64,000 nt of DNA. Source: a virus. Under the pieces are notes generated by a model that was not told where the DNA came from, did no database searches, and worked only from the letters and a program-made list of their open reading frames with translations. The stretch is taken from UHGV virus genome UHGV-0098755. One strand, written 5' to 3'. The position numbers and the translations under genes were made by a program. How positions within the stretch are numbered: position 1 is the stretch's first letter; the number at the start of each line of letters is the position of its first letter. Positions 16,258 to 51,466 of this stretch are shown in pieces.

Positions 16258-16938
16258 TTATTTTAATGTTACGAAAGAAGAATTGCGTGTTTCACGAATT
16301 AAAACTGATCCGTCACGGTTAATGTAGTAAATTAAGCTAAATAAAGTTTGGTGTGCTGACGCGTGTTCAAAACTAGTTGGGTGAGATTTCCAATCCGGAG
16401 TTTCAGCTATCCATTGATAAATCCACCAAGGAACAGTGCAGAATCCTGGATTTTTTCCAATCAGCTGAAGATTCGGACTAAAGTTTTCCGGAAGAGTAAA
16501 TACAGACGGCTTTTCAGATTCAATAATCTCAGCTACAGCTTGTTCAAATTTTTCTTCAACAAAAGGAGTATCTTCAATCAAAACATCGGTATTTTCGGGA
16601 ATTTTATCCGTTTCTACTACTTCAATTTTAATATCAGATTTAACCGGAGAATCAATCAGAAGTGCTGCTTCTGGATTGACTTCTTCATCGTCATATTTTA
16701 ACCCCTCTGCGGCATCAGCAGCATCAATTAAGTCTTTAATAGATAACCCATCAGTCTCTGGCATAGGTTCACTAGCGAGCTTCTGGAGGGCTTCTTCAAT
16801 ATCAGCAACGATATTATCAAAAGATTTATTCTTTTTGACCTTTATACCAAACTGTTCAGCGTATTCAGCTAATTTAGCTTTAGCTTCTTTGTTATCATCA
16901 AGAGCCTTCAGCTCTGCAATATAATCTTTATCTATCAT
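16258..16938 (-). CDS. inh: probable inhibitor of prohead protease Inh (226 aa)
   Basis: Position next to hoc; acidic protein; identification from synteny and length only. Confidence 0.55.
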   Translation of the reverse strand: MIDKDYIAELKALDDNKEAKAKLAEYAEQFGIKVKKNKSFDNIVADIEEALQKLASEPMPETDGLSIKDLIDAADAAEGLKYDDEEVNPEAALLIDSPVKSDIKIEVVETDKIPENTDVLIEDTPFVEEKFEQAVAEIIESEKPSVFTLPENFSPNLQLIGKNPGFCTVPWWIYQWIAETPDWKSHPTSFEHASAHQTLFSLIYYINRDGSVLIRETRNSSFVTLK

Positions 16939-16951
16939 AATATTTCCTCAG

Positions 16952-16959
16952 TATAAATA
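16952..16959 (+). promoter_or_regulatory. late promoter box TATAAATA upstream of uvsW
   Basis: Exact TATAAATA ~30 nt before the uvsW ATG. Confidence 0.55.
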
Positions 16960-16988
16960 TAGATATATTTATTACATGGTATTTAGAC

Positions 16989-18500
16989 ATGACTGACATT
17001 AAAGTACATTTTTATGATTTTAGTCACGTGAGAATTGATTGTGAAGAAAGTACATTTCATGAACTCCGTGATTTCTTTAGCTTTGAAGCTGATGGGTATC
17101 GTTTTAATCCGAAATACAAATATGGCCACTGGGATGGACGAATTCGTCTTTTAGATTATAATCGTCTTCTTCCATTCGGATTAGTCGGGCAAATTAAAAA
17201 GTTCTGTGATAACTTTGGCTATAAAGCCTGGATTGACCCACAAATTAACGAAAAAGAAGAATTATCAAGAAAAGATTTTGATGAATGGCTTTCTAAATTA
17301 GAAATCTATTCAGGAAATAAAAGAATTGAACCACACTGGTATCAAAAAGATGCAGTGTTCGAAGGATTAGTTAATCGTCGTAGAATTCTTAATCTTCCAA
17401 CATCCGCTGGTAAATCGTTAATTCAAGCTTTGCTTGCGCGATATTATTTGGAAAATTATGAAGGTAAAATTCTTATCATTGTTCCAACAACGGCTCTGAC
17501 AACTCAGATGGCTGATGACTTCGTTGACTATCGTTTATTCAGTCATGCAATGATAAAGAAAATTGGTGGCGGAGCATCAAAAGATGATAAATATAAAAAT
17601 GATGCACCAGTCGTTGTTGGTACATGGCAAACTGTAGTTAAACAACCGAAAGAATGGTTCTCACAGTTTGGAATGATGATGAATGATGAATGCCATCTTG
17701 CTACAGGAAAAAGTATTTCATCTATCATATCAGGATTAAATAACTGTATGTTTAAATTTGGTCTATCAGGTTCATTACGTGATGGCAAAGCCAATATCAT
17801 GCAGTATGTTGGAATGTTTGGTGAAATATTTAAGCCAGTAACGACTTCTAAATTAATGGAAGATGGACAAGTAACTGAGTTAAAAATTAATAGTATTTTT
17901 CTTCGTTATCCCGATGAGTTCACCACTAAATTAAAGGGAAAAACTTACCAAGAAGAAATAAAAATTATTACTGGGCTCAGTAAAAGAAATAAATGGATCG
18001 CTAAATTAGCTATTAAGCTTGCGCAAAAAGATGAAAACGCTTTTGTCATGTTTAAACATGTATCGCATGGTAAAGCTATTTTCGATTTAATTAAAAATGA
18101 ATACGATAAAGTTTATTACGTATCAGGGGAAGTTGATACCGAAACACGCAACGTAATGAAAACCTTAGCTGAAAACGGTAAAGGAATAATTATAGTAGCT
18201 AGTTATGGTGTATTTTCTACTGGTATTTCAGTTAAAAATCTGCATCATGTTGTTTTAGCGCACGGCGTTAAATCAAAAATCATTGTATTACAAACAATCG
18301 GTCGTGTATTACGTAAGCATGGTTCTAAGACAATAGCAACCGTCTGGGACCTCATAGATGACGCGGGCGTAGTTTCTAAATCAAAAACATCTTCTAAAAA
18401 ATACTCGCATTTAAACTATCTTTTAAAACATGGACTTGATCGTATTCAGCGTTATGCTGATGAGAAGTTTAATTATGTGATGAAAGAGGTTAAACTTTGA
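16989..18500 (+). CDS. uvsW: UvsW SF2 DNA helicase (503 aa)
   Basis: Walker A LPTSAGKS and DECH box; N-terminus matches remembered T4 UvsW; late promoter 16952-16959. Confidence 0.9.
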   Translation: MTDIKVHFYDFSHVRIDCEESTFHELRDFFSFEADGYRFNPKYKYGHWDGRIRLLDYNRLLPFGLVGQIKKFCDNFGYKAWIDPQINEKEELSRKDFDEWLSKLEIYSGNKRIEPHWYQKDAVFEGLVNRRRILNLPTSAGKSLIQALLARYYLENYEGKILIIVPTTALTTQMADDFVDYRLFSHAMIKKIGGGASKDDKYKNDAPVVVGTWQTVVKQPKEWFSQFGMMMNDECHLATGKSISSIISGLNNCMFKFGLSGSLRDGKANIMQYVGMFGEIFKPVTTSKLMEDGQVTELKINSIFLRYPDEFTTKLKGKTYQEEIKIITGLSKRNKWIAKLAIKLAQKDENAFVMFKHVSHGKAIFDLIKNEYDKVYYVSGEVDTETRNVMKTLAENGKGIIIVASYGVFSTGISVKNLHHVVLAHGVKSKIIVLQTIGRVLRKHGSKTIATVWDLIDDAGVVSKSKTSSKKYSHLNYLLKHGLDRIQRYADEKFNYVMKEVKL

Positions 18501-19189
18501 ATTATAAATTAATATACGATAATTTAATTAATAGAGCCCAGAATCGGGCTCGCCTTAATGGATACACTGAAACTCATCATATAATTCCTAGATGTATGGG
18601 CGGTACAGATGATAAGTGTAATTTGGTAGAACTAACAGCTGAAGAGCATTTTATAGCTCATAAACTTTTAGCTAAAATTCATCCAAACCATTACGGTATA
18701 ATTAAAGCCGTTATATGTATGGGGATGAATTCAAAGACTCATGAAAGACACGTTAATAAATCTTACGCCTGGGAACGTCGTAAAATGGCAGAACTTCAAT
18801 CAGGTGAAGGTAATCCATTTTACGGAAAACACCATACGGAAGAACATAAACAATATATGTCAAAACTCATGAAAAATCGTCCAATTACGTGGGGAAGTAA
18901 AATTAGTAAAACTAAAAGAATGAACCCAACAAAATGGACTGAAGAAGCTAAAAGATTGCATTCTATCAATCAATCAGGTAAAAATAATGGCATGTATGGA
19001 AGGAAACATTCCGCTAAATCTATTCAGAAAATTAAAGATAACATGCCAGATAATTCAGGAGCTAATAATCCAGCTGCTAAACCTATAGAAGTAAATGGTG
19101 TTAAGTATAAATGCATGAAAGATGCTTCTAAAGCTACTGGATTATCAATGTACAAACTAAGAATACTTAGAAAAACAGTTAATTTATAA
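18497..19189 (+). CDS. HNH homing-type endonuclease with NUMOD3-like repeats and C-terminal HTH (230 aa, TTG start)
   Basis: HNH motif ETHHIIPRCMGG...NLVELTAEEHFIAHK; repeated GxxNPFYGKHHTEEHK / GKNNGMYGRKHSAKS modules; TTG at 18497 overlaps uvsW TGA (TTGA) with AGAGG upstream; first in-frame ATG would remove the HNH motif. Confidence 0.6.
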   Translation: MNYKLIYDNLINRAQNRARLNGYTETHHIIPRCMGGTDDKCNLVELTAEEHFIAHKLLAKIHPNHYGIIKAVICMGMNSKTHERHVNKSYAWERRKMAELQSGEGNPFYGKHHTEEHKQYMSKLMKNRPITWGSKISKTKRMNPTKWTEEAKRLHSINQSGKNNGMYGRKHSAKSIQKIKDNMPDNSGANNPAAKPIEVNGVKYKCMKDASKATGLSMYKLRILRKTVNL

Positions 19190-19203
19190 GGGCTTCGGCC
19201 CTT
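19188..19203 (+). terminator. hairpin with UUCG loop immediately after the HNH-NUMOD gene
   Basis: AAGGGC-TTCG-GCCCTT overlapping the stop codon. Confidence 0.45.
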
Positions 19204-19214
19204 TGGAGAAAAAG

Positions 19215-19445
19215 ATGTTACTAAAATTTAAACAATTTCTTTATGAAGCTTCTATTGATGAATTTATGGGTAAAATTGCCTCTTGTCAAACATTAGAAGG
19301 TTTAGAAGAACTTGAAGCTTATTATAAGAAAAGAGTTAAAGAAACTGAATTAAAAGATACTGATGACATCTCAGTCAGAGATGCTTTGGCAGGAAAAAGA
19401 GCTGAATTAGAAGATTCAGACGATGAAGTAGAAGAAAGCTTTTAA
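19215..19445 (+). CDS. uvsW.1: UvsW.1-like small helical protein (76 aa)
   Basis: ORF-track start 19203 is TTG; ATG at 19215 with GGAG 6 nt upstream gives 76 aa, the size of T4 UvsW.1. Confidence 0.65.
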   Translation: MLLKFKQFLYEASIDEFMGKIASCQTLEGLEELEAYYKKRVKETELKDTDDISVRDALAGKRAELEDSDDEVEESF

Positions 19446-19500
19446 ATTAAAAAAGGCCCAACCAAAAAGGAAGGGCCAAAACTATAGACTAAAGGTCACA

Positions 19501-19668
19501 CTATAGCAAAAGTTGTGTTTCATTTAATTGTTCTTCCGAACTTTCTGAAACTGGTAGTTCTTTAATGTAATTATAGCAAGGCCCAGGATGTACAGGACCT
19601 TTGTCTGTTTCAACAACCAATGCAGAATCGATTGGAGTTTTACAGACAACACAAATCTTATCTGACAT
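19501..19668 (-). CDS. small Cys-rich protein (55 aa), position of T4 uvsY.-2; not in ORF track (below 60 aa)
   Basis: ATG at 19668 preceded by perfect GAGGAG; MSDKICVVCKTPIDSALVVETDKGPVHPGPCYNY...; stop TAG at 19501-19503. Confidence 0.5.
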   Translation of the reverse strand: MSDKICVVCKTPIDSALVVETDKGPVHPGPCYNYIKELPVSESSEEQLNETQLLL

Positions 19669-19696
19669 GATTGTCTCCTCTGAATTATATATCTAT

Positions 19697-19921
19697 TTAT
19701 ACAACTCTCATATGCATATCAATGCCCATATCTTTAGAATAAAAATATTCATCAAGATATCCGGCAAATTTTCCTTTAATATAAAGGACATCTTCACCAC
19801 ACGGGTGATCGGCCAGGATACGAATATCCTGACGCTTAAGATTATACTTTTTCATTAAGAATTGAATTTCCGTTTCAAATTCTTCTTCATAATTAAAAGC
19901 ACCATCAATGCTATATCTCAT
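19697..19921 (-). CDS. hypothetical protein (74 aa), position of T4 uvsY.-1
   Basis: ATG start abutting uvsY stop. Confidence 0.55.
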   Translation of the reverse strand: MRYSIDGAFNYEEEFETEIQFLMKKYNLKRQDIRILADHPCGEDVLYIKGKFAGYLDEYFYSKDMGIDMHMRVV

Positions 19922-49376: not shown

Positions 49377-49593
49377 ATTGTTTTTCCGTTAAAACAGTAA
49401 TATCGTAGTAACAGTCAGAAGAAGTTTTAACTGTGGAAATTTTATTATCAAAATACTCACGAGTCATTTTATGAGTATAGTATTTTTTACCATAAATGGT
49501 AATAGGCTGTTCTGGTCCTGGAACTTCTAACTCGCTTGGGTTAGGAAGTGTAAAAAGAACAACGCCAGAAGTATCTTTAAATCGTAAAATCAT
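49330..49593 (-). CDS. hypothetical protein (87 aa), position of T4 nrdA.2
   Basis: ATG start; overlaps neighbours. Confidence 0.45.
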
Positions 49594-49901
49594 ATTGCCA
49601 TTTTCCCTTTAATTGCTGGATGCGATTCATAATTTTCAAGGATAAAATCTTTCGGTTTCATGTATTCAGTTAACCAGTAAAGCTGTGTTTCGGTGTCACA
49701 ATTTCCAAACTCTATAGGCCAATCAATTTTAAGTTCACATAGTTCTTTAGGCTCACGACGTAAAATTTCTTTACATTGCTCAGTATGATTCATATAGATG
49801 TGAGTATTACCACCAGAAAATATCAAATCTCCTGGGATAAGATTACACATCTTAGCTACAATATGAACTAACGAAGCATATGATGCAATATTAAATGGAA
49901 G
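49590..49901 (-). CDS. td: thymidylate synthase, exon 2 (103 aa plus stop)
   Basis: Begins [19 protein letters not shown]... (conserved TS C-terminal region); 3' splice site after ...GAACATAATG; the ORF-track M at 49904 is the last 3 nt of the intron. Confidence 0.85.
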
Positions 49902-50917
49902 CATTATGTTCAGATAAGGTCGTTAATCTTATCCCGGAATTATATCCAGCTGCATGTCACCATGCAGAGCAGACTATATCTCCAACTTGCTAAAGCAAGT
50001 TGTCTATCGTTTCGAGTCACTTGACCCTACTCCCTAAAGGGATAGTCGTTAGGCATTTATGTAGAACCAATTCCACTTATCAGATTTTACACGGTAAGTA
50101 ACTAATCCGGATGAAATTTCAAAATATCTAGCTGCATCAGCTGCACATTCAAAAATAATCCCATCACATGAAATCTTTTTAATATTATTAGGCTTTTTAC
50201 CTTTCATCTTTTCTGATATTTTAGATTTAGTTTTGTCTGAATGCTTATGATTAAAGAATGAATTATTTTCACCTGAACGATTTCTGCATTTACTACAAGT
50301 ATAAGCAGAAGCTTGTATGCGAACACCGCATTCACAAAACTTATGGGTTTCTGGATTCCAACGCCCGTTTTTACTTCCGGGTTTACCGTAAAGAGCTTTC
50401 CGACCATCAGCGCCAAGCTTAAGCATCTTAGCTTTAACAGTTTCAGAACGTTTCTTAATAATTTCTTCTTTTAATGGATGCACAGAATATGTATCACCAA
50501 ACGTTGCATCAGCAATATTGTATCCATTAATTTTAGAATTAAGCTCTTTAATCCAAAAATTTTCTCGTTCAATAATCAAATCTTTCTCATATGGAATTTC
50601 TTCCAAAATAGAGCATTCAAACACATTACCGTGTTTGTTAAAAGACCTTTGAAGTTTTATAGAAGAATGGCATCCTTTTTCTAAGTCTTTAAAATGCCTC
50701 TTCCATCTCTTTTCAAAATCTTTAGCACTTCCTACATATACTTTATTGTTTAAAGTATTTTTAATCTGATAAATTCCACTTTTCATAAATACCTCTTTAA
50801 ATATAGAAGTATTTATTAAAGGGCAGTCCTACAATTTAGCACGGGATTGTCTACTAGAGAGGTTCCCCGTTTAGATAGATTACAAGTATAAGTCACCTTA
50901 TACTCAGGCCTCAATTA
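49902..50917 (-). mobile_element. group I self-splicing intron in td (1016 nt) carrying the I-TevI ORF
   Basis: 5' end reads TAATTGAGGCCTGAGTATAAGGTGACTTATACTTGTAATCTATCTAAACGGGGAACC... directly after exon 1 ...TTGGGT; 3' end ...CTGAACATAATG; length 1016 nt equals the T4 td intron as recalled. Confidence 0.85.
50049..50786 (-). CDS. GIY-YIG homing endonuclease I-TevI (245 aa)
   Basis: N-terminal GIYQIKNTLNNKVYVGSAKDFEKRWKRH (GIY-YIG); 245 aa; inside the td intron. Confidence 0.9.
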   Translation of the reverse strand: MKSGIYQIKNTLNNKVYVGSAKDFEKRWKRHFKDLEKGCHSSIKLQRSFNKHGNVFECSILEEIPYEKDLIIERENFWIKELNSKINGYNIADATFGDTYSVHPLKEEIIKKRSETVKAKMLKLGADGRKALYGKPGSKNGRWNPETHKFCECGVRIQASAYTCSKCRNRSGENNSFFNHKHSDKTKSKISEKMKGKKPNNIKKISCDGIIFECAADAARYFEISSGLVTYRVKSDKWNWFYINA

Positions 50918-51466
50918 ACCCAAGAAAACATCTACTGATCGTTGATACCATTGTAAATCAAGATAACCATTACGCACATTAAACTGATAGAACATATGAC
51001 AGGGCGGTAATGCCATTTGATTGATTTCAGCTGGATTCCATGCTGAAACGATTTGACGTCGATCAGTTGGTAATTTTTTAATACGATCAATAGTTTCAAC
51101 TAATTGATCCACACCACCGAAATCACGCCATTGTTTACCGTATATAGGACCAAGTTCACCACTATGATATCCTAGGTCTTTAGCCTGGTTTTCATAGTTA
51201 TCGTCCCAAATAGTTTTACCTTGAATAAGACTACCATGAGTGCGAAGACGTAAATCATTAACATTGGTAGAACCGGAAATAAACCATAGAAGCTCAGCAA
51301 TGCAAGCTTTCCAGGCGAGCTTTTTGGTTGTTACCGCAGGAAAACCTTTGGTTAAATCCCAACGCAATTTAGTACCGAACAAAGCAATTGTTCCTGTGCC
51401 TGTTCGGTCATCGGTTTCGTAGCCATTTTCAAAAATGTCTTTAATTAAATCTTGGTATTGTTTCAT
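50918..51466 (-). CDS. td: thymidylate synthase, exon 1 (183 codons)
   Basis: TS active-site motif PPCH (ALPPCHMFYQF); exon ends ...VDVFLG immediately before intron TAATTGAGG. Confidence 0.85.

Follow-up and report, generated by a model that had tools for sequence, protein, structure and literature searches.

A probable Mob-type HNH homing endonuclease gene at the 3' end of uvsW in the phage genome UHGV-0098755

The window analyzed here, a 64,000-nucleotide (nt) stretch of the virus genome UHGV-0098755, contains, between the uvsW helicase gene and uvsW.1, an open reading frame (ORF) for a putative HNH endonuclease (Table 1). The endonuclease ORF is in a different frame from uvsW and overlaps its end: the sequence around the start, ...ATGAAAGAGGTTAAACTTTGAATTAT..., includes the quadruplet TTGA, in which the TTG at 18497-18499 starts the endonuclease and the TGA at 18498-18500 terminates uvsW, and a Shine-Dalgarno sequence, AGAGG, at 18485-18489 is located 7 nt 5' of the TTG. 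Because there is an in-frame TAA two codons 5' of it (18491-18493), no start earlier than this TTG is possible; the ORF has its next ATG at codon 34, that is, 3' of the codons for His27 and His28.

A Pfam search identifies NUMOD3 (PF07460) in two stretches of the protein, with a score of 51.8 bits against a cut-off of 20.4 (7.7e-14). The match to the I-TevI DNA-binding domain is sub-threshold (14.7 versus 27 bits), and so is that to the HNH profile PF01844 (16.8 bits versus a gathering threshold of 21.4, E-value 0.0079), from the seed of which the Mob subfamily diverges. Residues 157-216 align with I-TevI (1i3j), residues 1-217 match phrog_655, “homing endonuclease” (1.6e-61), and residues 1-106 show 52% identity to T4 MobE, starting from Met1 of the latter (E-value 5e-33) and with the HNH motif aligned. 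In an alignment of 70 homologs, Y3, H28, P31, G36, N42, L46, H51, H55 and L58 are invariant and H27 is nearly so. Taken together, the phrog_655 match, the identity to MobE and the invariant residues remove the doubt over the nuclease domain. The AlphaFold model of the endonuclease, with a predicted local distance difference test (pLDDT) score of 87 overall and about 96 over residues 1-70, places beta-strands 25-28 and 43-46 and helix 48-61 around the HNH residues, a modelled layout that would fit the arrangement expected of an HNH beta-beta-alpha element. Sequence and structure searches detected no structural match to I-HmuI or any other full-length HNH homing enzyme.

Met1 of T4 MobE falls opposite the TTG codon (MNYQKIY versus MNYKLIY), and this match, together with the invariant Y3 and the starts of the same-site orthologs described below, lends comparative support to initiation at the TTG. 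The first-pass annotation had proposed an HNH domain with two NUMOD3 repeats and a C-terminal helix-turn-helix, an architecture supported by the domain and homolog comparisons, in which the helix-turn-helix is a putative element. It had also described the TTG overlapping the uvsW TGA with AGAGG 7 nt upstream, exactly as found in the sequence, and had argued that the full-length protein can be translated from this codon only, with which the upstream TAA, Met1 of MobE and the ortholog starts all agree.

Table 1. Genes, protein domains and other features of the uvsW locus in the window
Feature	Coordinates	Strand	Description and basis
T4-type late promoter box TATAAATA	16952..16959	+	30 nt 5' of the uvsW ATG; T4 late-promoter consensus
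uvsW helicase gene, host of the insertion	16989..18500	+	503 amino acids (aa); Pfam UvsW_N 3.9e-43, ResIII, Helicase_C
Insert-linked divergent uvsW 3' tract, ~145 nt	18355..18500	+	identity to insert-free relatives, megablast
Predicted RNA hairpin	18458..18504	+	11-bp arms 18464-18474 / 18488-18498 and 4 outer pairs
Recoded uvsW tail ATGAAAGAGGTTAAACTTTGA (M K E V K L stop)	18480..18500	+	stands for native M K T V N L stop; holds AGAGG and TTG
Insert missing from empty-site alleles, 689 nt	18486..19174	+	T4 type ...ATGAAA/ACAGTTAATTTATAA... (slash, insertion point); ends ambiguous within the A-run
Endonuclease ORF	18497..19189	+	230 aa, TTG start; ORF listing, domain searches, MobE alignment
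MobE-like HNH nuclease domain, residues 1-75	18497..18721	+	conserved H27/H28, N42, H51, H55
NUMOD3 repeat 1, residues 94-122, SGEGNPFYGKHHTEEHKQYMSKLM	18776..18862	+	Pfam
NUMOD3 repeat 2, ~residues 157-183, SGKNNGMYGRKHSAKSIQKIKDNM	18965..19045	+	Pfam; I-TevI 1i3j alignment
Putative C-terminal I-TevI-like helix-turn-helix subdomain, residues 193-227	19073..19177	+	
Native uvsW tail AAAACAGTTAATTTATAA (K T V N L stop)	19172..19189	+	same as in empty-site alleles
GGGCTTCGGCCC hairpin, UUCG loop, in the spacer before uvsW.1	19190..19201	+	in filled and empty sites
uvsW.1, downstream neighbor	19215..19445	+	76 aa; Pfam UvsW-1 1.5e-30

Comparison of the uvsW/uvsW.1 junction across relatives finds the insert in T6 and other phages and clean empty sites in others. 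The empty sites in T4, L007 and L008 contain ...ATGAAAACAGTTAATTTATAAGGGC..., and those of the Tequatroviruses L007 and L008 read ...TACGTAATGAAAACAGTTAATTTATAAGGGCTTCGGCCCTTTGGAGAAAAAGATG; the filled site in the window is ...TATGTGATGAAAGAGGTTAAACTTTGAATTAT..., the ORF, then ...CTTAGAAAAACAGTTAATTTATAAGGGCTTCGGCCC.... Insert-free records match the window only from 19172 on in a megablast search, which places the insertion of 689 nt 15 nt inside uvsW. Thus, the first-pass annotation was right that the gene is absent from the T4 junction and that it lies between uvsW and uvsW.1, but the gene is not “wedged” in the spacer: the insertion point is within the coding end of uvsW. The native tail displaced by the insert supplies the endonuclease with its final five codons and its stop (...R-K-T-V-N-L-stop). 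On the other side, the T-to-E recoding of uvsW (ACA to GAG) yields the GAGG of the endonuclease Shine-Dalgarno sequence, and only about 12 of the 21 bases are common to the two tail copies in the window.

Seven other lineages, namely the L019, L032, L022 (PSD2002), L033, L034, L035 and L025 (Morganella phage Rgz1) types, have orthologs of the endonuclease (55-70% identity) at exactly this position between uvsW and uvsW.1. With the window counted, the endonuclease start overlaps the uvsW stop as NTGA in all eight lineages, the start codon being TTG in four of them, ATG in three and GTG in one. A purine-rich Shine-Dalgarno sequence (GAGG or AGGTGG) is present at about -12 to -7 in all four TTG lineages and in none of the four with ATG or GTG, which suggests that a strong Shine-Dalgarno sequence compensates for a weak start codon, in a set of lineages that are few and not independent. 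With the overlap constant and both the start codon and Shine-Dalgarno strength varied, these lineages form a clean natural series that could serve for studying the tuning of selfish nuclease gene expression by translational coupling. The tail arrangement seen in the window recurs in two of the other lineages. In L033 (MT446411, 2001-2696), ATTAAACAGGTGGAAAT is found on both sides of the orthologous endonuclease as a near-perfect direct repeat of 17-20 nt, and such near-identical copies imply that recoding of the tail is not obligatory. In the PSD2002 type, the endonuclease ends with LMKQVDL before the stop, similar to the UvsW tail of an empty-site relative, L011 (VMKQVDL, also followed by the stop). 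In the remaining lineages, the endonuclease stops 4-6 residues sooner; for L019, in which the junction was compared in detail, the insert is located right at the uvsW stop codon.

The insert is linked to a divergent end of uvsW. The segment 18355-18500 is 71-75% identical to insert-free Tequatroviruses, compared with 95-98% for the preceding 454 nt. Such divergence is lacking on the right-hand side of the insert, where uvsW.1 is 98-100% identical between insert-bearing and insert-free Tequatroviruses. This one-sided divergence is the pattern expected of a homing cassette with a co-converted flank. A megablast search with 18340-18496 retrieves 53 records, that is, 49 insert-bearing ones (at least 98.1% identity) and LH2, OES_C-1, OES_C-2 and OES_C-3 (about 92%). 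The two of these four that were fetched, Escherichia phage LH2 (L027, OQ378934) and OES_C-2 (L028, PQ642263), are insert-free mosaics, with insert-type sequence from 18355 to about 18407 (some 50 nt) and T4-type sequence beyond. These two may have arisen by recombination, or they may be resistant alleles that conversion from a distant cut left behind. Among the fetched loci, insert-bearing relatives and mosaics aside, no potential donor of the tract exceeds 75% identity.

A megablast search with 17900-19700 identifies 749 phage records, 49 of which (about 6%) span the insert, including T6, EC121, HY03, PST, ACG-C40 and UFV-AREG1; all 49 cover the full endonuclease ORF at 96.5-99.6% identity. 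The insert is missing in about 93% of the related records. The ORF is full-length in the copies examined directly in the window, T6, EC121, PST, G8, ZN18 and UFV-AREG1. In the copy from Escherichia phage BF15 (L030, MW822007, 358-945), which is annotated as 195 aa, the alignment falls 4 nt short of the query length, implying a frameshift caused by gene decay or by a sequencing error. The insert-bearing records annotate a 693-nt coding sequence from the same TTG under names such as “homing endonuclease”, “mobD/MobE”, “mobile endonuclease E” and “group I intron endonuclease”, so the gene is already annotated in T6-like genomes and is not new to the databases. A literature search for this specific gene found no paper describing it, and a 2010 review of T4 mobile elements lists segE alone at this locus (PMC2988022).

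In many T6-like records, uvsW looks “split” or carries wrong labels (uvsW-A/uvsW-B, mobD, “group I intron endonuclease”), which the insertion accounts for. The possibility that uvsW and uvsW.1 are halves of one split gene was considered and rejected: T4-type empty sites already hold two ORFs, and all 75 UvsW.1 homologs found are stand-alone proteins of 52-96 aa without a helicase domain, which argues against a split gene. The single-ORF uvsW of 587 aa in NC_000866 is a known sequencing error (PMC1524935). In this T4 record (L004, 4183-4211), the sequence is TTAATAAGCTTCGG, compared with TTATAAGGGCTTCGG in other empty sites; the difference is located at the GC hairpin, goes with the joining of uvsW and uvsW.1 in a single ORF and still propagates into annotations of the “uvsW-A/uvsW-B” kind.

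The late promoter box upstream of uvsW is the only exact plus-strand match to TATAAATA from that position to the end of uvsW.1, which makes it the likely source of a uvsW-HNH-uvsW.1 transcript. There is no internal late promoter in the form of an exact TATAAATA box between the uvsW start and uvsW.1, and sigma-70-like promoter matches are no more common than in shuffled sequences (11 versus 12.4). The endonuclease gene probably lacks a promoter and is carried along on the late transcript of uvsW. A sequence matching the late-promoter box at 7 of 8 positions, TATAAATT, is found at 18503-18510, shortly after the start of the endonuclease ORF; any transcription from it could serve only the downstream uvsW.1, not the endonuclease.

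The predicted RNA hairpin at the start (-9.2 kcal/mol, z -3.67, a stability reached by 0 of 200 shuffles) would mask the GG in the Shine-Dalgarno sequence along with the first two bases of the TTG. Given that the left arm lies within uvsW codons, a terminating uvsW ribosome would open it. Single folds do not recover a start-region hairpin in the other seven lineages, so that it belongs to the Tequatrovirus version only, and RNAalifold analysis of five sequences yields -3.76 kcal/mol with no compensatory pairs or covariation. A conserved hairpin over the start was rejected on these grounds and is retained as a lineage-specific possibility. We infer coupling to uvsW translation and low expression of the endonuclease, consistent with the lack of a late promoter of its own and with the Tequatrovirus hairpin. 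Another hairpin, GC-rich (GAGCCC-AGAATC-GGGCTC), is present at 18534-18551, 36 nt into the endonuclease ORF. It is terminator-like on the minus strand only; the coding strand has no T-run there. Its position brings to mind the internal terminators described for mobE and segF, but nothing supports an equivalent role, and it was set aside as a candidate.

The window and T6 endonucleases differ by 20 synonymous and 5 non-synonymous changes, and the corresponding ratio of non-synonymous to synonymous substitution rates (dN/dS) is 0.055; between Tequatrovirus subclades, this ratio is 0.04-0.06. Thus, the endonuclease is almost certainly under selection. Its divergence is roughly parallel to that of UvsW, with endonuclease/UvsW identities of 70/77, 58/71 and 56/64%.

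These observations are best compatible with a free-standing T4 Mob-type homing endonuclease gene, which combines a MobE-like HNH domain with an I-TevI-like tail and forms a cassette in the 3' end of uvsW; on the sequence comparisons, we consider this assignment to be probable, and the enzyme is probably active. Under this interpretation, a cassette of about 0.8 kb, consisting of the foreign 145-nt uvsW 3' end, the recoded tail and the endonuclease ORF, would have entered Tequatrovirus genomes. Having no promoter of its own, it would be transcribed late together with uvsW and uvsW.1, and ribosomes terminating at the overlapping uvsW TGA would translate it from the TTG, aided by the GAGG derived from the recoded uvsW codons. 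In this lineage, initiation would be restrained by a hairpin opened solely by uvsW translation. Because of the coupling and the hairpin, the output of the endonuclease should be low and late. In a mixed infection, the enzyme would introduce a nick or a cut into uvsW of insert-free relatives, at its uninterrupted 3' end, and repair off the insert-bearing genome would copy the endonuclease gene together with the linked tract; the genome carrying the insert would itself be immune, its site being split by the insertion and the left copy recoded. The selfish gene would thus sit harmlessly in the coding end of its host gene, bringing a replacement tail and reusing the native one, and the uvsW 3' end would be one more site on the T-even homing-endonuclease insertion map. 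The endonuclease belongs to a well-known class, and the general understanding of homing endonucleases is unchanged.

The location of orthologs at exactly the same site in eight lineages from several genera, the parallel divergence of the endonuclease and UvsW, the strong purifying selection and the tight packing, with start/stop overlaps at both ends of the gene in several lineages, would also fit a resident, domesticated nuclease that is not currently mobile and is kept for a benefit to the phage, such as excluding or out-competing co-infecting relatives or making nicks for UvsW-linked recombination-dependent replication. This scenario appears improbable: the gene is dispensable, judging from its absence in some 93% of the related records including T4, the BF15 copy is frameshifted, and the linked foreign tract and mosaic alleles are the signature of homing and gene conversion, which a competitive benefit would not rule out in any case. 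The same low dN/dS, about 0.05, counts against a decaying homing endonuclease remnant that has lost its expression or activity and merely hitch-hikes, as might be suggested by the weak TTG start, the lack of a dedicated promoter, the sub-threshold Pfam HNH score and the truncated 195-aa copy in BF15. Given also that the ORF is full-length in every other copy examined directly, that all 49 insert-bearing records align over the full query, that Y3, H28, N42, H51 and H55 are invariant and that the start position is kept in eight lineages, a remnant is very improbable.

Both a start elsewhere, e.g., at the codon 34 ATG, which would give a nuclease-dead DNA-binding protein, and an intron-encoded endonuclease are highly implausible. 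TTG is rare as a start codon, but residues 1-33 are conserved and include the invariant Y3, the identity to MobE extends from its Met1, and four lineages have ATG or GTG at the same codon. As for an intron, the “group I intron endonuclease” label in some records is matched by a partial hit to TIGR01453 of the same name, which at 30 bits is far below the cut-off of 56.05 and covers residues 109-216 only, i.e., the DNA-binding part. An intron context was rejected given that no Rfam match at E<=1 was detected in 17800-19800; furthermore, the endonuclease ORF directly overlaps the uvsW stop, leaving no room for an intron.

Within the homing interpretation, a variant that we regard as rather unlikely is that the cut site is not the insertion point but about 90-145 bp upstream in uvsW, in the most divergent patch (18355-18407), with the mosaics being resistant. 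Short conversion tracts from a distant break have been reported for SegG and MobE. If this variant were true, LH2 and OES_C-1, OES_C-2 and OES_C-3 would be endonuclease-resistant alleles derived from short conversion tracts, uvsW would be contested from both ends by unrelated endonucleases, segE at the 5' end and the HNH gene at the 3' end, and the C-terminal residues of UvsW (T to E) would have been shaped by the need of a parasite for a ribosome-binding site.

T4 SegE is a GIY-YIG homing endonuclease encoded between inh and uvsW that targets uvsW. It resembles the window endonuclease in the host gene and in that the end of uvsW next to it is divergent and linked to its presence, but belongs to another nuclease family and is located at the opposite end of the gene. 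The segE gene is present at the inh/uvsW spot in T4, T6, EC121, PST and LH2 and is missing from the window, where inh (16258-16938, minus strand) is directly followed by the late promoter and uvsW (16939-17120 region). The first ~130 nt of uvsW in the window are 73% identical to segE-bearing phages and 95-100% identical to segE-free G8, ZN18, L007, L008 and OES_C-2, so that the 5' end of uvsW is, by the same type of comparison, a second apparently endonuclease-linked tract on this gene. All four combinations of presence and absence of segE and the HNH gene occur.

I-HmuI, which is encoded in an intron of Bacillus phage SPO1, combines an HNH domain with modular NUMOD-type DNA-binding elements and nicks one strand; it differs from the window endonuclease in being intron-encoded and is not among the sequence or structure matches of the latter. 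I-TevI, the endonuclease of the td intron (PDB 1i3j/1t2t), is likewise intron-encoded and is a GIY-YIG enzyme, in contrast to the free-standing HNH gene described here. The window itself encodes I-TevI (245 aa, 50049-50786) between two td exon ORFs, 50915-51466 and 49590-49904, on the minus strand, i.e., the classical td group I intron (49590-51466). This protein is a weak NUMOD3/helix-turn-helix paralog of the endonuclease (30% identity, E-value 3e-7).

The MobE of phage Aeh1 is similarly an HNH Mob-type gene inside a host coding region, and its expression is regulated by a hairpin that sequesters the ribosome-binding site (Gibb and Edgell 2009, as cited in PMC2988022). The analogous hairpin here is a predicted one, in the Tequatrovirus version only. 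In Aeh1, the insertion splits nrdA, whereas here the last five codons of uvsW are removed and replaced, and uvsW is not divided into two functional pieces.

According to Edgell et al. (2010, PMC2988022), many free-standing endonuclease genes are cassettes without a promoter, and both MobA and MobE nick target DNA and show preferential inheritance. The AUG of T4 mobE, which is located between nrdA and nrdB, overlaps the nrdA stop (UAAUGA), and coupling is suspected (PMC2988022). The endonuclease gene in the window appears to be such a cassette as well, free-standing, without a promoter and with a start overlapping the upstream stop. The differences are that T4 MobE has 141 aa, lacks the NUMOD3 and helix-turn-helix tail, starts with AUG rather than UUG and has another locus and another target, nrdB; nicking and preferential inheritance have been demonstrated for MobE, whereas the window protein is known from its sequence.

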